This document shows positions 2,834-11,873 of a DNA stretch of 11,884 bases, in pieces. The notes below the pieces were generated by a model. The model searched no databases. It was given only the letters and a program-made list of their open reading frames with translations, and had not been told where the DNA came from. The position numbers were made by a program, and so were the translations under genes. Source of the stretch: Caedimonas varicaedens (GTDB lineage: Bacteria; Pseudomonadota; Alphaproteobacteria; Caedimonadales; Caedimonadaceae); the NCBI GenBank assembly GCA_001192655.1, contig BBVC01000031.1:1-11884 (forward strand), written 5' to 3'. Every line of letters starts with the position of its first letter. The stretch's first letter is position 1.

Positions 2834-3481
2834 TTAGACAAACTTGAAAGTGAGGTCGCAGGATATTGAACCACTCAAATCAGCAGGAGAAGCCCATCGC
2901 AAGGTGAGACCCAACTCGCTGAAATCAAGCTCAGAAACGGCAGATAAGTCCATAACATTTATTGTTTGTTCGCGACTGTAACGAGAAAGTCTTGCCTTTC
3001 CTTGGCTGTTTTCAGTAAAAGTTGACAGTGTCCATTCTGTGCCAATAAACTTTGTATAGTCAATTTGAGTATCACTTGTTCCTGTTCCAATAGGACTTAG
3101 GATACCTGGAAGCGTTGGTGTGCTGAGAATTGTATTATGATCTGGAACACTAAAGCGAATCATCCCGACTTTAGGCTCTGTTGGGCGCTGAGATTGAACA
3201 CCAACAGGAACAGTAAGGAATCCTGCACTATCAATCACCGTGTCGCCAGGGACAACTGGATTTTGAGAAATGGAAATCACAGGCTTTTGAGTAGCAGGAT
3301 CAATACTTATCACAATCTGGCGATCAGTTCCTAAAATGTCTTGGTTGAGAAGAAACCGAAGCCATTGAGTACCATCATGAAACTCAACACCCGCTGAAGA
3401 TGGATCAACGCTGTTAACCGGTGCCAACGCAGTGAATGGAACTTCATTTTTTTCATAAGTAAAATCAATATTTTTAGGCAT
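2834..3481 (-). CDS. fibre-associated protein (215 aa) carrying the short form of the shared fibre module
   Basis: ATG at 3481 has AGGA about 9 nt upstream and lies 17 nt after the 813-aa stop. Residues 51-110 (GTDRQIVISIDPATQKPVISISQNPVVPGDT...VPVGVQSQRPTEPKVGMIRF) parallel the last 60 aa of the upstream 813-aa protein. The C-terminal ~105 aa are of unknown fold. Confidence 0.8.
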   Translation of the reverse strand: MPKNIDFTYEKNEVPFTALAPVNSVDPSSAGVEFHDGTQWLRFLLNQDILGTDRQIVISIDPATQKPVISISQNPVVPGDTVIDSAGFLTVPVGVQSQRPTEPKVGMIRFSVPDHNTILSTPTLPGILSPIGTGTSDTQIDYTKFIGTEWTLSTFTENSQGKARLSRYSREQTINVMDLSAVSELDFSELGLTLRWASPADLSGSISCDLTFKFV

Positions 3482-3498: not shown

Positions 3499-5940
3499 TT
3501 AGTGAGTTGTGTAACGAATCATTCCGACCTTGGGCTCTAAAATTGCGTCTCGTTCGGCTTGACTTCCTCCTGGAATCATAACATATTTTGTCCCTGGGAT
3601 CGTAGGATTTTCAGCTAAAGAAATCTTTTTTTGTGTTGAATCGTCAAAATCGTCTTCAATCACGATTTGATGGTCTGTTCCAACGCTTTTAACGCCTATT
3701 TTTTTTGACCCTAATGCGTCACTCCGAAAATAAGCGTCCTCAGATTGAGAATAGAAATACACATGCTTATCTTGGAAAGAAGGAATGCTATGTGTTTCAG
3801 CAAGAGCAATCACCGCCTTATCTCCTTGTCCTGTATTCTTGATATGAAGTGAATATTGCGGATTATTGTGACCGATAGCCACGTCAGGATAATAAACGTC
3901 ATTATCGTGATCCGCTCCACCAAGAACGATAGAATTGGAAGACTCAACCTTGGCATACGCGCCAATAGCAATGGCATTGACAAGCGTTCCTGAATCTTGC
4001 CCGCCCGTGTCCGCTTGGTATCCCAAGCCAATACAAAAATCTCCTCCCTTTCCCACCAAAGGCACATTTGATCCTGTGACCGAAGAAAGCGCACTGTCTC
4101 CAATGGCAATATTTCCTCTTCCTGTGCTATTGCTTCCCAAAGCATCAACACCGATGGCAAGATTCGGATGTTGTGTGAGCCACGAATGAGAAGTCGTAAA
4201 ATTTAAAGAAGCTCTGTCTCCTATAGCAATGTGCCTGGATTCAGCCGTCAAAGGATTGGTCGAGTCTGCATTCAGGTAAAAAAGTGTGCGATAGCCAATG
4301 GCAATATTGGAACTGCCACTTCTGGTCATTCTCGCGGCAGAATATCCAATGAAAACATTAGGCGATCCCAGTGGCTTTGCCGCAAAAGGCGCGTAATTAG
4401 CTCCAGCATAAGCACCGATGGCGACAGAGCCATCTGTAACTGTTTGAAATCTTTCAAGAGAATTCCCTTGTAAAGCGCAATAGCCAATCGCCACAGAACC
4501 GTCAATATATCCAGACAAAGGAATCCCAAGGGTATCAATGTTTGCAGGATACTGAAGGGCATTTGCGCCAATCGCAACGTTATGCTCCCCTTTGAACATG
4601 TTCTCAAGTGTACTTTGTCCAATCGCTACATGATTCCCACCAGGAGAAAGCATGGACCAAATTCCAGGACCAACACCAGATCGAGAAAGAGCATTTTGTC
4701 CTATGGCAACAGAGTTTTTGACGAAACCACAATATTGCAAAGCTTGGTGTCCCAAGCTCACATTGTAATCTCCTGACGAAAATTCTTGAGACGAAAAACC
4801 AACCGCCACATTGTAACGCGCCGCACTCACTCCCACAGCGTTACCGCAATTCTTCAAAGCGTTATAACCAACCGCCACATTCTCAATAGGATTAGCATGC
4901 GAATCAGATTCATTTGTAGGTGAGGAAAGCACGTTGAGGCCAATAGCAACATTTCGTGAGGCGCTACCTCCATCCGCAAACGTTCCACACTGTGTGCCGA
5001 TATAAAAATTGTCACGATCGCCAAATGTGTCGGTGATATAGGTCGGCTTTGCTTCTCCATACATCTTTTTCCAGCCGTCATTATATCCGCCCTCAAAGTA
5101 ATTCGTGTCGCTATTGTAGCGAAACATGCCAACGACAGGCTGTTCAGGCGTAGGATCGGGTCTTTGATCGTCTCCTCCCATAGGAATCGTGATGGAAATA
5201 TTGCCGGGGAAAACCGCATTATCCTGAAACGTGGTCTCAATCTTTTTAATCTTTTTGTCAGGATGTTCAGGATCAGGAATTACTTCAATTACCTTGCCTG
5301 AAACCGCTCCTATGATACTTTGACCAATGTTTTCAAAAATCACCACTTCCGCTATTTCCAAGTCTGCAAGCGTCAGGAAATCAATGCCAGGAATGGCAAT
5401 CTCTATCTTGCCAAAAGGCAGATTTTCAGGATGAAGAGGATCAGGTAATTGAAGAGAAAGTTTTAGAATGTTGGGCGTCAGGGCAATATTATAAAGCTCG
5501 TTCAAAGTTTGAGCATGTGGCAACTTCTTATCGCCATATTGACCTAAAGCCACGAATGGCTCACCGCCATAAGCATAATCCTCATTAGGTTGAGCATAGG
5601 CAAAGGTTGTGTAGTGTTGATCATCAGGCACGTCAGGATTGGCAACAGCAAGTTTCGTTAAAACGGGATAAGGTAATGCTGGAGGCGTTGCGGGCGTTGG
5701 AACAACAGTATTCAAATCAAAAGGCATCGGTCTTGAAAGAATGGTTTGATCTTCCTGAACCTGTGGAATGCCTAGCCAAATATGAGAACTCTGTAAATCT
5801 GGCAAATTATCTTGTAAAATAGTGGGTGAAAAAAAGGAATGGTTCTGATCGTCACCCAGAAGAACATGACTAAATGGAATAATGAGCTTCCCGCTCACAG
5901 GTGACATAAAAGGATCGGTATAGCCTGAAAGATAGTTCAT
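3499..5940 (-). CDS. large tail-fibre/adhesin-like protein with YadA-head-like beta-roll repeats
   Basis: 813-aa ORF. Long module at the N-terminus (VLLGDDQNHSFFSP at aa 26-39; NAVFPGNISITIPMGGDDQRPDPTPEQPVVGMFRYNSDTNYFEGGYNDGW at aa 241-290). About 16 irregularly spaced N-[VI]-A-[IV]-G-x-x-[AS]-L repeats over aa 329-690, resembling trimeric-autotransporter head (Hep_Hag) repeats. A second, short module forms the extreme C-terminus (GTDHQIVIEDD...NPTIPGTKYVMIPGGSQAERDAILEPKVGMIRYTTH-stop). No signal peptide or membrane anchor. Confidence 0.9.
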   Translation of the reverse strand: MNYLSGYTDPFMSPVSGKLIIPFSHVLLGDDQNHSFFSPTILQDNLPDLQSSHIWLGIPQVQEDQTILSRPMPFDLNTVVPTPATPPALPYPVLTKLAVANPDVPDDQHYTTFAYAQPNEDYAYGGEPFVALGQYGDKKLPHAQTLNELYNIALTPNILKLSLQLPDPLHPENLPFGKIEIAIPGIDFLTLADLEIAEVVIFENIGQSIIGAVSGKVIEVIPDPEHPDKKIKKIETTFQDNAVFPGNISITIPMGGDDQRPDPTPEQPVVGMFRYNSDTNYFEGGYNDGWKKMYGEAKPTYITDTFGDRDNFYIGTQCGTFADGGSASRNVAIGLNVLSSPTNESDSHANPIENVAVGYNALKNCGNAVGVSAARYNVAVGFSSQEFSSGDYNVSLGHQALQYCGFVKNSVAIGQNALSRSGVGPGIWSMLSPGGNHVAIGQSTLENMFKGEHNVAIGANALQYPANIDTLGIPLSGYIDGSVAIGYCALQGNSLERFQTVTDGSVAIGAYAGANYAPFAAKPLGSPNVFIGYSAARMTRSGSSNIAIGYRTLFYLNADSTNPLTAESRHIAIGDRASLNFTTSHSWLTQHPNLAIGVDALGSNSTGRGNIAIGDSALSSVTGSNVPLVGKGGDFCIGLGYQADTGGQDSGTLVNAIAIGAYAKVESSNSIVLGGADHDNDVYYPDVAIGHNNPQYSLHIKNTGQGDKAVIALAETHSIPSFQDKHVYFYSQSEDAYFRSDALGSKKIGVKSVGTDHQIVIEDDFDDSTQKKISLAENPTIPGTKYVMIPGGSQAERDAILEPKVGMIRYTTH

Positions 5941-6538: not shown

Positions 6539-6745
6539 CTAAGAGCCTTGCATTGGTTCACTAATGCTCGTGATGGAGGACGTATGTAGCTTAGGAAGAT
6601 CAGCACTTACATGCACGCCTGTTATTTCACCACCTTGGATGACAGGCGTTGCAACCAATCCTAACGAAAGTAATCCATTGTAAAGCCTTTCATTTCTGTC
6701 GGCAGATGACATATGTTGTGGTTGGAATTTTTCTGCAATGTTCAT
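6539..6745 (-). CDS. hypothetical protein (68 aa)
   Basis: ATG at 6745 is preceded by AAAGGAAC about 9 nt upstream. It ends just before the terminator hairpin. No family recognised. Confidence 0.5.
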   Translation of the reverse strand: MNIAEKFQPQHMSSADRNERLYNGLLSLGLVATPVIQGGEITGVHVSADLPKLHTSSITSISEPMQGS

Positions 6746-6813: not shown

Positions 6814-7017
6814 TTAATGCGCATCCTGTCCAATCCTCGCTCCACACTCACAATGCTTACCATGTTCCCGCTCATGTTCAAATTCTGTTGCAAACTCTTC
6901 AATAGCTTCTTCAGCAAGATGCTCCGCTTCTTTCACAGCAAACTTTCCAAGTTCATACGTGCAGGAGGAAAGAGCAAGAACAGATAAAATGATGAGTTTA
7001 TTCATAGATGGAGTCAT
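6814..7017 (-). CDS. small lipoprotein (67 aa) with an acidic, His/Cys-containing mature part
   Basis: The N-terminus M(TPSM)NKLIILSVLALSS-C is a textbook lipoprotein signal with lipobox LSSC. Mature part: CTYELGKFAVKEAEHLAEEAIEEFATEFEHEREHGKHCECGARIGQDAH. The start could be ATG 7017 or ATG 7005. No clear SD. Confidence 0.6.
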   Translation of the reverse strand: MTPSMNKLIILSVLALSSCTYELGKFAVKEAEHLAEEAIEEFATEFEHEREHGKHCECGARIGQDAH

Positions 7018-7093: not shown

Positions 7094-7378
7094 TTATTGG
7101 TCTTTATTGTAAGCAATAATTTTATCCGTCAGCACTTCAAGGTAATCTATATGACAGATTCTCCCCATAAAAAGAAGTAATATCATTTCTATAATCAATA
7201 AAGAAAGAGAAGACCAGTCTTTTAAATGGGGAAAGATTAATAAATCAATAAAAAACAATGATAATAAAAAAAAGAAAAACAGAGTTTGGAGAAATTTAAT
7301 CCACACTCCATAGAGCAACTCCTTCAATGCGCTGCTATAATTTCTTAACGTAGACTCTTTTCTAAATTTGTTCATCAA
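7094..7378 (-). CDS. small two-TM membrane protein; candidate toxin partner (PanT-like) of the upstream Panacea gene
   Basis: Two hydrophobic helices (WIKFLQTLFFFFLLSLFFIDLLIF and LSLLIIEMILLLFMGRI) with polar, charged ends. The track start at 7378 is actually TTG; the first ATG is at 7375. It overlaps the 3' end of the 153-aa gene by 14-17 nt, suggesting translational coupling. Confidence 0.6.
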   Translation of the reverse strand: MMNKFRKESTLRNYSSALKELLYGVWIKFLQTLFFFFLLSLFFIDLLIFPHLKDWSSLSLLIIEMILLLFMGRICHIDYLEVLTDKIIAYNKDQ

Positions 7379-7823
7379 TAAAAAAATCTTTATATTCTTG
7401 AAGTATATCGCAATTGTTTATTTCAGCATGATATAAAGATCGGCGATAAGTCTTTTCCCAAGCACCATCCGCAAGATGTGTAAGAGCCACAAGATTATTT
7501 GTGCTGTAAGGGCGATATTTTCTGTAAACTTTTTCAATCAAGATAGACTCTTGCCCAGCGATAGGATCATCATTCGAAATTGTTTTAGTCCCATAAAATA
7601 CATTTAAAACAGGACGATTGGAAAAAATATTCGCCTTTTGATAAACCTCGGGATTTACAGGCCCATATTGCCAAGCTTCAAACGGCTCTTCTATTAAATA
7701 ATCATCGTTTTTACCGAGATGAAACATATGACAAAGATACATGAGTTTTTGCAAGCGTAAATTGCTTATGCTCCAATAACTTAATGAGCATAATTTCTTC
7801 GCCGCTTGAAATGCTGTAATCAT
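7362..7823 (-). CDS. Panacea (DUF4065) domain protein, PanA/SocA/GepA-type antitoxin
   Basis: SNLRLQKLMYLCHMFHLGKNDDYLIEEPFEAWQYGPVNPEVY matches the DUF4065 signature (LQKLLY...G.pL..e.FEAW.yGPV.p.vY). Its size (153 aa) and its position upstream of, and overlapping, a small gene fit the PanAT arrangement. Confidence 0.85.
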   Translation of the reverse strand: MITAFQAAKKLCSLSYWSISNLRLQKLMYLCHMFHLGKNDDYLIEEPFEAWQYGPVNPEVYQKANIFSNRPVLNVFYGTKTISNDDPIAGQESILIEKVYRKYRPYSTNNLVALTHLADGAWEKTYRRSLYHAEINNCDILQEYKDFFIDEQI

Positions 7824-8130
7824 CTTATCTACCTATCATTTACTCTTTCCCTTCCTTCCTCTATCCTTGCGCCACTTCTTCTCAAAGTCAATAGACACAG
7901 AAAGAGAATCATTTGTTCTTACCATTCTTGCCATTAATTTTATTTTTGCTTGTATCGTGATTAACCATTTGAGTTCTTACTGCTTTTATTTCTGTTTTAA
8001 CTGAATCAATCTTGCGTTCTGCGGGCAAATTCTCTGGCTCTGTCCCTGTATTTTTAATAACCATCTTGACATATGTTGGCAAATGGCGAAATAGGCGCAG
8101 ATCACAAGGCCTCTATTTTGAGCGGAATCG

Positions 8131-8237
8131 AATTTTACACAAATTTGGCACAAGCAACATCACTCTTTTTATCACAGAATCTAGGAATGCTGTACTCTTT
8201 TATGGGGTAAAATTTTACACAAATTTTACACAATTTG
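8131..8237 (+). repeat. direct repeats (TTTTACACAA core) in the integrase upstream region; possible operator or arm-type sites
   Basis: The exact 16-mer AATTTTACACAAATTT occurs at 8131-8146 and 8211-8226. A third core copy, TTTTACACAA at 8224-8233, lies in tandem 11 bp after the second. All end about 20 bp before the int SD (TAAGGAGG, 8252-8259). Confidence 0.6.
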
Positions 8238-8262
8238 CATAAAAGTCACAGTAAGGAGGAAA

Positions 8263-9438
8263 ATGATGCAACGAGTAATTTTGACACAATCTATGATCGA
8301 AAAAGCGAAGCCAAAGGCGCGTATTTTTTCTTTGAAAGATGCGAAAGTCCCAGGGCTTGAGTTTGTTACCAATCCACGAGGAACACAGTCTTGGTTTGTG
8401 AGAGCGTTTAAACAAAAAATACTTCTCGGAAGATATCCGTTTATGAGTCTAGAAGATGCCCGAAAAATGGCTCTTCAGGTATATGTTGATCTTCAAAAGG
8501 GCGTTGTTCCTCTGGTTAAGAAAAAAGAAGAAAAAAACAAAAATATTACAGTTAATCAACTGGTTGAAGAGTTTTTCCAATTTAGATCATCTGGCACTCA
8601 TGCCTTAGAAGAATCGACAATGAACGTCTATAAGAAAGCTTGGGTTGCCTTAGGTTCTGAAACCATTGGAAGCTTTCAAATCTCAGAATTAACAGACGTT
8701 ACGATTAATCAAGTTTGTCTGCCATTAATGGCAAAATATTCTCGAGTGAAGTGCTTACAGAATCTCATACATGTAGCGTTCCAATATGGCTTCAAAATGG
8801 GCTACCCTGTTGCCGTTTTGAATTCAGATAATTGGCTGAAAGGAAAGGGCGAAGGCAAAGAAAGATACTTTTATTCTGCTGACGTTCAGAAACTTGAAAC
8901 GCAAACTGATTTTGGGCTTCAAAAGGATTCCACTGATTCGTCAATTTTACATATTCTTATGTACACAGGTTGTCGAGTTACTGAGATTTTAGAGCTTCAA
9001 TGGAATGATATTTCTTTAGAAAACGGCTATTTCAAGCTTCGTAAAACAAAGACTAAAAAGCAACGAGTTGTTCCTATTTCTGGTGCGTTGCGTGAAATTT
9101 TTCTGAGATTACAAACCACTTCATCTACGGGATACGTTTTCAAATCCCTGAGAGATGCCAATGCTCCCTATAATTATTTTACGCTGATTCATTTTTGGCG
9201 TCTCATTATGAAGCAGGCTGGTTTTAATACAGATGGTGAAAAATTGACCATCCACAGCTTACGCCATACGTTTGTGACGGTTGGTAATCGGATCAAGGTT
9301 TCTCCCTTTACGTTGCAAGATTTAGTCGGTCATTCCCGTGGCCGCTCTGTCACGGCTGGATATATTCATCCCAATCTAGCGGAGCTTGCAGAAGCCCAGC
9401 AATCCATCATTTCAGCCATTCAGAGCGGGAGCTACTAA
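8263..9438 (+). CDS. int: tyrosine recombinase / phage integrase, P4-type with DUF4102 arm-binding N-terminus
   Basis: A perfect SD (TAAGGAGG) precedes ATGATG. N-terminus LKDAKVPGLEFVTNPRGTQSWFVRAF...LGRYPFMSLEDARKMA fits the DUF4102 pattern. Catalytic set present: R in YTGCRVTE, K in KLRKTKTKKQRVVPI, HSLRHT (H-x-x-R), GH in LVGHS, Y in TAGYIH. Confidence 0.95.
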   Translation: MMQRVILTQSMIEKAKPKARIFSLKDAKVPGLEFVTNPRGTQSWFVRAFKQKILLGRYPFMSLEDARKMALQVYVDLQKGVVPLVKKKEEKNKNITVNQLVEEFFQFRSSGTHALEESTMNVYKKAWVALGSETIGSFQISELTDVTINQVCLPLMAKYSRVKCLQNLIHVAFQYGFKMGYPVAVLNSDNWLKGKGEGKERYFYSADVQKLETQTDFGLQKDSTDSSILHILMYTGCRVTEILELQWNDISLENGYFKLRKTKTKKQRVVPISGALREIFLRLQTTSSTGYVFKSLRDANAPYNYFTLIHFWRLIMKQAGFNTDGEKLTIHSLRHTFVTVGNRIKVSPFTLQDLVGHSRGRSVTAGYIHPNLAELAEAQQSIISAIQSGSY

Positions 9439-11873
9439 TGATTCTGCCTGAAATCCGCTGGAGCTATTTTGAACACATTAGAGATAATAAGCCTACGCCT
9501 TATAAGACGGACTGGGCTTTGTTCTCCAGCAAATTCAGTCAGCATCAAACGGCTGTAGAAAAGCATACAGTGCCTGCTTTTTCCATGAACATCTATAAAG
9601 AGAAGACCACACGGAGCAATGAATCGGTTCATAGCATGTCAGGTGTTGTCCTTGATTTTGATGGGAAGAGCAAGGAAGCGGTGACACTTAAGAAAGCGGC
9701 TTCTGCCTTAAATGGTTATAGCTATGTGGGATACACGACTTTCTCTCATTCTGAAGAAGCTCCTCGATACCGCCTTGTGATTCCTTTTTATGAAGCTATA
9801 TCACCTGAAGATTATCGTGGTCGTTTCTTTCCTGTGTTGAAGGAATACCTGAAGCAAAAGCTTGGTTCTAACTTGGAAGAGCTGGACGAAGGATGCCCAA
9901 TTCCTTCCAAGATTTACGATATTCCTTGTGTTCGGGAAGGTATGACACCTGAATCGATTGTTAAAACAGGTGGCTTTTTACATCCTGAATTATTTATCAC
10001 GAAATACCATGTACAGCAGGCACTTCTTAACGTTTCTGCGGATTGTGGGTATCACGACTGGATTCAAGTTGGGATGGCGATTCATGCGGGATTGGGCGTT
10101 TCTGAAGGGTTCGAGCTATGGAACGAATGGTCGTCCACAGGAAGCAAATATGCAGGAGCGCGTGACCTCGCCCAATACTGGAAAAACTTCAAGGAAGACA
10201 AGGGTATTACGCTGGGAACGCTGTTCCATAAGGCAGATTATCACCCTGGGGAAACTTTAATTTCTCTTCATTCCGTAGTGACGGGCGTTGATTCCTCTCT
10301 GTCCGTTTCCGATCAAATCTTGCAGTTTTTAAAGGAAGTGGGTCAGCCTTGTCTTCCAAGAGAAATTGCTTTTGGGATTGGGAAGAAAACAGAGAAAGAG
10401 CAAAGCAACGTTCGGGTGGTTATTAAAAGGCTTTATGATCGCGGTGATCTTGCTCGTAATAGCACCCAGAACACTTATGAACTTTCTTTCACTAAGCGTT
10501 CAGAAGACCAAAAAACAGGTCAGCGTTACATCCAAGACGATCAAAAATCGGATAATGAGGGTGTAACGTTACATGAAAATAGGGGTGTAACACCTGTAAC
10601 GATACATGATTTTGACTCAAAAAATAGTCAAATGGGTGTAACGGAAGGCAAAACTGGTGTAACGGCAAAGCTCAATATGTGGTCAAATTTCCGCGAATAT
10701 GGAAAATTTAATATTTTAGATGTGTCTCATTTCCCGATTCTCGCAAGTATTTATTCTTTTTTTACTTCCAACTGCAAACCTTTCCTTCCCCACCTTGCGT
10801 TAGGTGCCACGATTAATTGTGCAGGTCATATGATGCGTCCGATTGGAATATGTCGCGGAAAGAGGACAAACTTTTACACACTTCTTATATGTCGCACAGG
10901 TGGTGGAAAAGAAACAGTCGCGCGAAACATTTTTAAATATATGGACTACCAAAAGCTGGGAGCTTACACGGCATCTAACTTTGTGAGTGTTCAGGGGTTT
11001 GAAAAGAAGATCACCCAAACCAATCCTCTTCTTATGATAACTGACGAAGCCGCGCAATGGTTCGGAGCTTTTAGCGGTCGGAACACGAGTGAACATTTTA
11101 AGAAGCTCAAGACAGCGTTGAAGCTCGTGTACTCGGGGGATCGGTATACGTGCCAGAATTCCAAGAGCGAAAATGGGGCTGTGATTGAAGAGCCTTTCTT
11201 AAATTCCTGTTTTTTAGGAACGCCTGCGATATTTCAGAATATTCGGGAAGACGATATTACGGATGGTCTCTTGGGTCGGATGCTGGTGTTCCATGATGTG
11301 AACAATAGCTGGGGTATTAGTGCGTACGATTTATCCAAAGCAGAAAGCTTTGTTCCTCCTGAACTCCTGAATATTAAAGCTCCGTCTAGTCTTTTTGAGC
11401 TTTATGAAAAGAACAATCGGTTTGACTTGCTTCACTTTTACGAAGGGCTTGTGAACAGTATGCCCCTTCCTGATACGTTGCCTGACAATTATGTGAAATT
11501 CTTGTTGGCGCGTATTCCTGAGAATTTCAACAAGCTTCTTCTTTTGACCATGAACGAGAAGGGAGAAGTGACGGACACAGGCGCACAGTGGGCGGCTTCT
11601 GTAGCGATTTATTGCTATGATACAGCTTGCGCCTTGCTGGAAGAGCATTTTGGTAAAACGTTCTTCTCGGACGCGCACCAGAAAATGTTTGATCTTATCA
11701 AATCAGCCAAAACCATTTCAAAAAGTCAGCTTCGCGCTTCTCATGCCATGAAGCGGTTAGACAAGCGTGTCTTTGAGGAAGCCTTGGACGCTCTGGCAGA
11801 AATGGGTGTCGTTGAGGTTATTCAACAGAATCCACCGAGTGGAGGTCGTCCAACAATCACCATTAATTTATAG
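9438..11873 (+). CDS. replicase: primase-like N-domain + PriCT-2 + winged-helix + DUF3987 (helicase-like) protein
   Basis: The ATG overlaps the int stop (TAATG), with GGGAG upstream. AEP-like motifs (VVLDFDG, TTFSHS, RYRLVIPF). PriCT-2-like DWIQVGMAIHAGLGVSEGFELWNEWSSTGSKY...YWKNF. Probable wHTH (ILQFLKEVGQPCLPREIAFGIGK...VIKRLYDRGDL). DUF3987-like C-half (TLLICRTGGGKETVARNIF, LLMITDEAAQWFG) and a terminal wHTH-like tail (MGVVEVIQQNPPSGGRPTITINL). Confidence 0.9.
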   Translation: MILPEIRWSYFEHIRDNKPTPYKTDWALFSSKFSQHQTAVEKHTVPAFSMNIYKEKTTRSNESVHSMSGVVLDFDGKSKEAVTLKKAASALNGYSYVGYTTFSHSEEAPRYRLVIPFYEAISPEDYRGRFFPVLKEYLKQKLGSNLEELDEGCPIPSKIYDIPCVREGMTPESIVKTGGFLHPELFITKYHVQQALLNVSADCGYHDWIQVGMAIHAGLGVSEGFELWNEWSSTGSKYAGARDLAQYWKNFKEDKGITLGTLFHKADYHPGETLISLHSVVTGVDSSLSVSDQILQFLKEVGQPCLPREIAFGIGKKTEKEQSNVRVVIKRLYDRGDLARNSTQNTYELSFTKRSEDQKTGQRYIQDDQKSDNEGVTLHENRGVTPVTIHDFDSKNSQMGVTEGKTGVTAKLNMWSNFREYGKFNILDVSHFPILASIYSFFTSNCKPFLPHLALGATINCAGHMMRPIGICRGKRTNFYTLLICRTGGGKETVARNIFKYMDYQKLGAYTASNFVSVQGFEKKITQTNPLLMITDEAAQWFGAFSGRNTSEHFKKLKTALKLVYSGDRYTCQNSKSENGAVIEEPFLNSCFLGTPAIFQNIREDDITDGLLGRMLVFHDVNNSWGISAYDLSKAESFVPPELLNIKAPSSLFELYEKNNRFDLLHFYEGLVNSMPLPDTLPDNYVKFLLARIPENFNKLLLLTMNEKGEVTDTGAQWAASVAIYCYDTACALLEEHFGKTFFSDAHQKMFDLIKSAKTISKSQLRASHAMKRLDKRVFEEALDALAEMGVVEVIQQNPPSGGRPTITINL
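10524..10665 (+). repeat. iteron cluster, putative origin of replication embedded in the replicase linker
   Basis: TGTAAC cores in direct orientation start at 10562, 10586, 10595, 10637 and 10658, mostly as GGTGTAACG. Inverted copies lie at 10524-10530 (CGTTACA) and 10568-10573, the latter making TGTAACGTTACA (10562-10573) a perfect palindrome. An AT-rich 7-bp inverted repeat TTTGACT/AGTCAAA (10611-10617 / 10626-10632) sits between the iteron groups. Confidence 0.55.

Follow-up and report, generated by a model that had tools for sequence, protein, structure and literature searches.

A two-gene cassette, panA-panT, lies on the reverse strand of an 11,884-nucleotide stretch of contig BBVC01000031.1 from Caedimonas varicaedens, which is referred to here as the window. 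The pair is probably a type II toxin-antitoxin (TA) module of the PanAT kind, carried as AT-rich accessory cargo of a temperate phage. PanA is a stand-alone Panacea protein, and PanT is a small protein with two predicted transmembrane (TM) helices and is a member of a large family whose genes adjoin Panacea genes. The two genes and their junction are located as follows.

panA, 7823 to 7362, minus strand: 153 amino acids (aa), ATG start, TAG stop at 7364-7362; predicted antitoxin
panT, 7375 (ATG) to 7094, minus strand: 93 aa, or 94 aa from an alternative TTG start at 7378; predicted toxin
Overlap of the panA 3' end with the panT start, 7362 to 7375, minus strand: 14 nucleotides (nt), or 17 nt with the TTG start, as read from the sequence

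Organization of the panA-panT cassette

Both open reading frames (ORFs) were confirmed at these coordinates, and they form a genuine conserved module of PanA and a membrane hairpin protein. Adjacent genes on the same strand that overlap or lie less than 100 nt apart are expected of such a pair, and panA and panT overlap directly. Their overlap suggests translational coupling, and no strong Shine-Dalgarno sequence was found before panT in the window or before the corresponding gene in most relatives. In nine metagenomic and phage relatives, the junction ranged from a 14-nt overlap to a 2-nt gap. No conserved third gene was found upstream of panA. The GC content was 0.31-0.33 over the cassette compared with 0.41 over the whole window, and this low value is consistent with acquired cargo.

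PanA is a stand-alone Panacea protein

The Pfam family PF13274 (SocA_Panacea) matched PanA with an E-value of 1.8e-17 and a score of 64.7 bits (cut-off 25.7). The match covered residues 24-122 of PanA and positions 1-112 of the 113-position model, so that the DUF4065/Panacea assignment made in the first-pass annotation passed the check with the hidden Markov model (HMM).

Panacea domain proper, 7458 to 7754, minus strand: PanA residues 24-122, Pfam envelope

No further domain was found by Pfam in the 153-aa protein besides Panacea. PanA also matched phrog_1281 with an E-value of 2.4e-30, and it was 36-51% identical to the PanAs of nine other pairs of the family (alignment A4). In the resulting 10-sequence clade alignment, W51, G54, P55, V56, H116, G120, A121 and W122 were invariant, all of them falling within the Panacea domain or just after it, and position 53 was Tyr in eight of the ten sequences. 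The window PanA thus retains both core motifs of the domain, W-x-Y-G-P-V before β2 and T-H-x-x-x-G-A-W at the end of α5. A sequence search of the PDB with the PanA profile returned spurious TRPV3 matches only, and an AlphaFold2 model of PanA from a 4-sequence alignment had a predicted local distance difference test score (pLDDT) of 54 and was not used.

PanT is predicted to form a membrane hairpin

Two Kyte-Doolittle peaks above 1.6 were present in PanT when 19-residue windows were used. AlphaFold2 modelling of PanT from a 10-sequence alignment placed helices at residues 3-50, 53-73 and 77-92 with a mean pLDDT of 72.6. In the model, PanT is shown to be a helical hairpin of two hydrophobic helices that is followed by a C-terminal amphipathic helix. 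The predicted segments are listed below.

TM helix 1, 7226 to 7291, minus strand: about aa 29-50; Kyte-Doolittle maximum 2.36 (about aa 27-50, with an FFFF run inside); conserved intramembrane Asp44
TM helix 2, 7154 to 7210, minus strand: about aa 56-74; Kyte-Doolittle maximum 2.10 (about aa 56-75); conserved Glu63
C-terminal amphipathic helix, predicted to be cytoplasmic, 7100 to 7147, minus strand: aa 77-92 in the AlphaFold2 model; motif I-D-Y-L-E-V-L-T-D-K-I-I

Residue conservation was counted over 58 family members. A polar residue is conserved inside each hydrophobic helix: position 44 in TM1 was Asp in 44 members and Asn in 11, and position 63 in TM2 was Glu in 36 and Gln in 19. Additionally, F33 (55 members) and F48 (49 members) were conserved, W54 was present in the loop of 36 members, position 71 was Ala or Gly in 56, and positions 72-73 were mostly basic (Arg or Lys in 39 and 43 members, respectively). 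The C-terminal helix, with a hydrophobic moment of 0.9, was the best-conserved block within the low-GC subgroup of the family.

The counts of Lys and Arg over the same members were 3.9 in the N-terminal flank, 0.14 in the loop and 2.5 in the C-terminal flank. This distribution predicts an N-in/C-in topology, in which both termini would be cytoplasmic and hence reachable by PanA. The N-terminus of the window PanT is short and basic, whereas the N-terminus typical of the family is acidic and coiled-coil-like.

No above-threshold match for PanT was found in Pfam, PADLOC, PHROG or NCBIfam, and a Foldseek comparison of the PanT model with the PDB revealed nothing meaningful. Sub-threshold matches to Pfam DUF5345 were observed in 8 of the 25 family members of alignment A5 (best score 25.0 bits, cut-off 27), and the window PanT itself did not match this model. 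DUF5345 is a 77-position family of unknown function that may be remotely related to the PanT family.

The PanT family is conserved next to Panacea genes

A phmmer search with PanT against 1.84 billion representatives identified nine relatives of 75-116 aa with E-values of 9e-11 to 7e-4, and a profile search added five further relatives; none of the proteins in either set was named or carried an above-threshold Pfam domain. An HMM built from 46 members from named genomes, with the window sequence left out, gave the window PanT a score of 32.6 bits, compared with 10.0 bits for the best of 200 shuffled sequences. The possibility that PanT is a chance ORF was rejected on the basis of the phmmer relatives and this shuffle-controlled score. 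A word-index protein search with the 93-aa PanT returned only the query itself, which was a sensitivity artefact, since the full HMMER search found relatives. In the 25-sequence alignment A5, the window PanT was 16-35% identical to the other members. Scans with degenerate patterns derived from the toxin alignment gave no matches in GTDB genomes, and those in metagenomes were all duplicates; no tblastn match was obtained with the window PanT against phages or with the Pelagibacterium PanT against plasmids.

A Panacea gene was located directly upstream of the PanT relative, on the same strand, in all 12 of the 12 independent metagenomic and phage lineages with readable upstream DNA, the two genes being separated by at most 2 nt or overlapping by up to 50 nt. 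One further relative (P0014) stands outside this count, as its contig stops 31 nt upstream of the toxin gene. The paired lineages are as follows.

L001/L002 with the 55-kb IMG/VR contig L011; L003/L005; L009; L010
L014-L016; L019/L020; L021/L022; L023/L024; L108; L109

The identities among the PanAs and among the PanTs co-varied with a Pearson coefficient of 0.83 across ten pairs, over 45 pairwise values; the pairs are not phylogenetically independent of one another. Adjacency that is conserved across divergent genomes, the criterion of FlaGs/NetFlax, was therefore found for this pair. We showed the pairing of PanA with PanT to be conserved and co-diverging over many phyla, phages and chromosomes.

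GTDB species representatives were scanned with the PanA-clade alignment, and the best 80 of 507 confirmed loci were taken as the named-genome set. In 64 of these 80 loci, the family HMM matched the ORF directly downstream of PanA, usually overlapping it. Most of the taxa were Alphaproteobacteria, with some Gammaproteobacteria, Nitrospinales, Phycisphaerae, Pirellulaceae and Binatia. The other 16 loci had no family match; two contained truncated family copies, and most of the others contained partners with a coiled coil and TM helices. These alternative partners within one PanA clade point to partner swapping, as expected for PanA. The truncated hairpin genes (L094:3443-3688 and L098:3447-3719) have kept the EERF/ERF-TM1 start and lost TM2, and the adjacent PanA appears intact in both. 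A tyrosine recombinase was found within 3 kb in only 1 of the 80 loci, which indicates that closeness to an integrase is not characteristic of the system. One chromosomal relative of the pair lies beside kdtA, a ferredoxin gene and mutS, and in other relatives the pair is located beside RecT, YqaJ or Erf recombination genes.

Among cultured phages, the closest PanA (37% identity) was that of the Bordetella avium phages vB_BaM-IFTN2, 4, 5, 6 and 7. In these phages, a gene annotated as "SocA family protein" is followed by an overlapping gene for a 122-aa "hypothetical protein", which is a clear member of the PanT family; in vB_BaM-IFTN2, the PanA homologue is labelled "hypothetical protein" as well. 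The pair is placed between a block of tail-fibre, holin and lysozyme genes and a Lar-like gene. The annotation of the toxin-family gene in all five phages could become PanAT candidate.

PanA-PanT-family pair of Bordetella phage vB_BaM-IFTN6 (L026), OM293955.1, 21305-22125

We also observed that the contigs of the nearest relatives (L014-L018, which are GCA_013558295.1 and sister assemblies, together with L023/L024 and L108) have a low GC content of 28-33%. The same contigs encode ankyrin-repeat proteins, PLD-like proteins and outer-membrane protein beta-barrels, and some come from very fragmented assemblies with contig numbers of about 700,000. These low-GC relatives are suggestive of phages of host-associated or intracellular bacteria within eukaryote assemblies. 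Two of the loci carry PanAT modules in pairs. L108:2214-4324 contains two divergently oriented pairs of a PanA with a partner of the PanT family (the second partner has 106 aa and matches the family HMM with an E-value of 9e-17). In L109:3549-5206, a second PanA gene is placed back-to-back with one such pair, and the 127-aa partner of this second PanA looks by eye like the phage S1249 protein of toxin cluster T12. Both loci adjoin a large gene of about 710 aa, and the two contigs encode ankyrin-repeat proteins or outer-membrane beta-barrel and Sel1-repeat proteins.

The PanT family probably corresponds to a catalogued toxin cluster

Dataset S1 of Kurata et al. 2022 (PMC8832971) lists the pair WP_127144916.1 (PanA) and WP_127144915.1 (PanT) of Pelagibacterium montanilacus CCL18 as cluster T32 (pT38), with the order A|T and a distance of -20. 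On the contig of this strain (L041), the PanA stop lies at 3438 and a family ORF starts with an ATG at 3419, which gives a 20-nt overlap as tabulated, and this ORF matched the family HMM with an E-value of 8e-21 and 73 bits. We infer that the PanT family is T32 of Kurata et al.; the L041 ORF was equated with WP_127144915.1 by strain, orientation and overlap rather than by the sequence of the accession. The window protein is linked to the listed T32 member through this ORF, as it matches the HMM that includes L041.

The first-pass annotation had described the pair as a candidate new one with a partner of no assignable family, and this description is not supported, as the partner belongs to a large family with one member already listed as T32 in Dataset S1. 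Its other statements on the pair were supported: the antitoxin comes first and the toxin second with an overlap of 14-17 nt; the partner has two hydrophobic helices, evident from both the Kyte-Doolittle peaks and the AlphaFold2 helices. The refuting condition that it had set, homologues of the partner lying away from Panacea genes, was not observed, as they adjoin Panacea genes in the 12 readable lineages and at the 64 named-genome PanA loci described above. The pairing of Panacea domains with membrane-active toxins that it mentioned is likewise supported, as membrane-disrupting PanTs are a validated class (PMC8832971).

The pair is carried by an element that resembles a temperate phage

The pair had also been placed next to an integrase in a P4-like satellite. 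The integrase is indeed present, divergent from panA and 439 nt from its start; the satellite setting was not borne out, as three tail genes are found on the same contig, no P4 or satellite markers were detected with Pfam or PHROG among the ten largest ORFs of the window, which is only 11.9 kb long, and only a single named-genome locus has a recombinase nearby. A satellite of this type would have an integrase, a P4 alpha-type primase-helicase and hijacking genes of the psu/delta/sid/cos type, and would lack structural genes of the virion. An integrase and a primase with a PriCT_2 domain are present, but the tail-fibre and tail-spike genes indicate that the element is a phage. The order in the window is tail genes, small accessory genes and the PanAT cassette, and then the integrase on the opposite strand. 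Overall, the element looks like a temperate phage, with panAT in an accessory ("moron") region between the tail fibres and int. The surrounding features are as follows.

Three tail-fibre/tail-spike-like genes, 772-2688, 2834-3481 and 3499-5940, minus strand: Peptidase_S74; phrog_4636 tail spike
68-aa ORF, 6539-6745, minus strand: two genes downstream of panT
Predicted phage lipoprotein, 6814-7017, minus strand: 67 aa, 76 nt downstream of panT; signal peptide, lipobox LALSS-C
Divergent intergenic region between panA and int, 7824 to 8262, no strand: presumed panAT promoter; three copies of the AATTTTACACAAATTT repeat beside int
Tyrosine integrase, 8263 to 9438, plus strand: PF00589 (E-value 5.8e-25), Arm-DNA-bind_3, phrog_1

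In tblastn searches, the tail genes matched tail fibre and tail spike genes of Prochlorococcus and Pelagibacter phages. A module P-G-x(n)-P-x-G-x(n)-R-P-x(n)-G-M-(I/F/M)-R is common to all three tail-fibre-like proteins and occurs twice in the largest, and several PHROGs of unknown function match at its position.

Tail module: aa 145-170 of the 638-aa protein, aa 78-109 of the 215-aa protein, and aa 245-274 and 782-809 of the 813-aa protein

On the other side of the cassette, the integrase stop codon shares one base with the start codon of an 811-aa PriCT_2 primase-helicase-like protein (TAATG, 9436-9440), and the two genes appear to be translationally coupled in one operon. No close relatives of the integrase or the primase were found in IMG/VR. 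Just upstream of the integrase gene, direct repeats AATTTTACACAAATTT(G/T)(G/T)CACAA are present at 8131-8153, 8211-8233 and 8222-8244. As the integrase has an arm-DNA-binding domain, the AATTTTACACAAATTT repeats may be arm-type/attP or operator sites, and if attP lies at these repeats, the contig would be the excised form of the phage. No Rfam families or tRNAs were found in the window.

The mature part of the lipoprotein is acidic and His-rich, and no database matches were found beyond a weak one to DUF7854. The lipoprotein gene is possibly co-transcribed or driven by a promoter-like site at 7097-7068. The 68-aa ORF is homologous to a 99-aa ORF (L014:8563-8862; 38% identity over 52 aa, phmmer E-value 7e-5), which likewise lies two genes downstream of panT in a prophage region of GCA_013558295.1. 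This homology hints at a larger shared accessory block.

Proposed mechanism and alternative explanations

In the proposed mechanism, PanT would insert into the inner membrane so that both of its termini face the cytoplasm, and cytoplasmic PanA would bind the cytoplasmic part of PanT (by analogy, the N-terminal region and the pre-TM helix) and hold it inactive. Loss or inactivation of PanA, for example upon phage infection or loss of the element, would free PanT, which could then oligomerise and dissipate the membrane potential or permeabilise the membrane. The polar Asp/Asn of TM1 and Glu/Gln of TM2 possibly line the conducting path, and the outcome would be abortive infection, superinfection exclusion or element addiction. 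This proposal follows the known PanAT systems. Kurata et al. defined Panacea/PanA with 88 predicted toxin clusters and validated nine pairs, including membrane-disrupting PanTs of E. coli (T3), Bartonella apis (T12) and Helicobacter (T4) (PMC8832971). Seven TM-bearing PanTs were tested and all were treated as toxins; four were neutralised by their own PanA, and three of these four were shown to depolarise the membrane (PMC8832971). In the NetFlax study, a stand-alone Panacea protein directly neutralised the Bartonella choladocola membrane toxin PanT_D11, and the Y56A and H120E mutants of the B. choladocola PanA lost neutralisation (PMC10440598).

Several points weigh against the assignment of panA-panT as a TA module. 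Small membrane proteins are often non-specifically toxic when overexpressed, and we found no published test of any member of the PanT family. No sigma-70 promoter consensus was found upstream of panA, nor was a promoter or operator identified, and the PADLOC-DB 2.0 defence models did not match PanA or PanT at an E-value of 0.1 or lower. The basic N-terminus of the window PanT implies that the determinant of PanA binding may differ from that of other members. Among the published pairs, three of the seven tested TM-bearing PanTs were not neutralised by their own PanA (PMC8832971), and the counterparts of B. choladocola Y56 and H120, which would be Y53 and H116 in the window, were taken from the description in the paper rather than from an alignment. 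All six T32 rows of Dataset S1 are marked "notest" (PMC8832971).

The "notest" entries also leave room for a conserved module that is not a TA system, in which the hairpin would lack toxicity and act as a membrane anchor or effector, either tethering PanA or being regulated by it, for example as a superinfection-exclusion factor or a signalling partner, with Panacea as the sensor. A primary role as a sensor domain has been proposed for Panacea by the NetFlax authors (PMC10440598), ten NetFlax candidates were without toxicity in E. coli, and the cassette lies among other small accessory genes such as that of the predicted lipoprotein at 6814-7017. We nevertheless judge this explanation to be rather unlikely, as the architecture of the pair is that of the validated membrane PanTs, with a charged N-terminus and two TM helices encoded downstream of, and overlapping, a stand-alone PanA. 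Additionally, the truncated hairpins beside an apparently intact PanA at 2 of the 80 loci (L094 and L098) represent a decay of the toxin that is seen in TA loci, and the partner swapping within the PanA clade is expected for PanAT. Within the TA assignment, a more specific proposal is that the T32-type hairpin is a distinct PanT class, an oligomeric ion channel built around the Asp/Asn and Glu/Gln pair. It would be used by temperate phages, in some cases in tandem with further PanATs, as a PanA-gated effector of abortive infection or superinfection exclusion, with PanA sensing the invading phage; this proposal is tentative and has modest chances of being correct.

A SocAB-like system was also considered, in which PanA would be a proteolytic adaptor that hands the membrane protein to a protease such as ClpXP or FtsH, so that the toxin builds up when proteolysis stops. 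SocA, the Caulobacter antitoxin that serves as a ClpXP adaptor, gave the Pfam family its name, and the antitoxin-first gene order is the same. However, stable complexes of PanAs with their PanTs have been reported, as expected of direct type II neutralisation (PMC8832971), a stand-alone Panacea protein acts directly on the membrane toxin PanT_D11 (PMC10440598), and SocB, a protein of another cluster (T10), is not located in the membrane; a SocAB-like adaptor is therefore quite improbable here. The topology of PanT is akin to that of class II holins, which are small hairpins, and the Bordetella avium phage pair adjoins holin and lysozyme genes, as would suit a phage lysis-timing pair with a holin-like PanT and PanA as its inhibitor. 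However, most family members are chromosomal with no phage genes in view (64 named genomes; the kdtA/ferredoxin/mutS locus is one example), a holin is already annotated on the opposite strand of the Bordetella phages, other phages carry the pair in the recombination or early region, and neither Pfam nor PHROG revealed an endolysin among the ten largest ORFs of the window. The holin reading was rejected on this genomic context, namely the chromosomal loci and the Bordetella phage layout, and a role in lysis timing is very hard to credit.

With the type II PanAT module as the preferred explanation, the six-member T32 entry becomes a well-defined family: it now counts more than 70 paired loci, its topology is defined, and two polar positions within the membrane are conserved. 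A tractable natural system is available in the Bordetella avium phages vB_BaM-IFTN2, 4, 5, 6 and 7, which are in culture. If validated, the family would represent a fourth sequence-unrelated membrane toxin class neutralised by a stand-alone Panacea protein, and it would be of help in testing how unrelated hairpin toxins are recognised by a single antitoxin fold. The practical value is modest, and no new kind of biology is opened.

Comparison with known PanAT systems

We compared the window pair with the known systems that carry a Panacea antitoxin. The SocAB pair of Caulobacter crescentus has the antitoxin domain PF13274 and the antitoxin-first order in common with the window pair. Its toxin is unlike the window PanT, as SocB (T10) is a soluble replication inhibitor rather than a membrane protein, and SocA is a ClpXP adaptor rather than a sequestering antitoxin. 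The Helicobacter T4 PanT is membrane-depolarising, with a coiled-coil N-terminus, C-terminal TM helices and a stand-alone PanA as its partner, and T4-like partners follow PanAs of the window's own clade in L006 and L106. In contrast to the window PanT, however, T4 proteins are about 240-290 aa long with three predicted TM segments, and they were not matched by the family HMM.

The E. coli T3 pair was compared through Escherichia phage PhiR47_1, whose PanT we place in T3 by inference from its annotation and from its gene gap of 22 nt, which equals the spacing tabulated for E. coli STEC O31. In this pair, the protein encoded after PanA has a long charged N-terminus and two TM helices in its C-terminal part, and the pair is phage or prophage cargo near the genome end. 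The PhiR47_1 PanT differs from the window PanT in its length (182 aa compared with 93 aa) and has no C-terminal amphipathic helix after TM2. It gave no HMM match at an E-value of 10 or lower and an hhalign probability of 1.1%.

The T12 pair of Bartonella choladocola (B. apis), which is NetFlax D11, likewise has a stand-alone Panacea gene, and the small toxin encoded downstream of it combines a charged N-terminal region with TM helices at the C-terminus. Induction of the B. choladocola PanT has been observed to depolarise the membrane and to make it permeable to SYTOX, and this toxin is directly neutralised by Panacea. The T12 representative used in the searches was the Aggregatibacter phage S1249 protein YP_003344835.1, not the B. 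choladocola PanT, and it gave no HMM match at an E-value of 10 or lower and an hhalign probability of 0.6%. As far as these sequence comparisons go, the T12 and T3 representatives appear to share only their architecture with the PanT family.

The closest similarity was found with T32 of P. montanilacus, which has in common with the window pair the sequence family, a stand-alone PanA ("noNTD") and the order of antitoxin followed by toxin. The window member departs from T32 in its divergent sequence, its short basic N-terminus, and its phage-borne location in a low-GC lineage. The window pair is thus a divergent phage-borne member of a family that is already catalogued as a predicted PanA-associated toxin cluster, and it is analogous to the membrane-depolarising PanATs.

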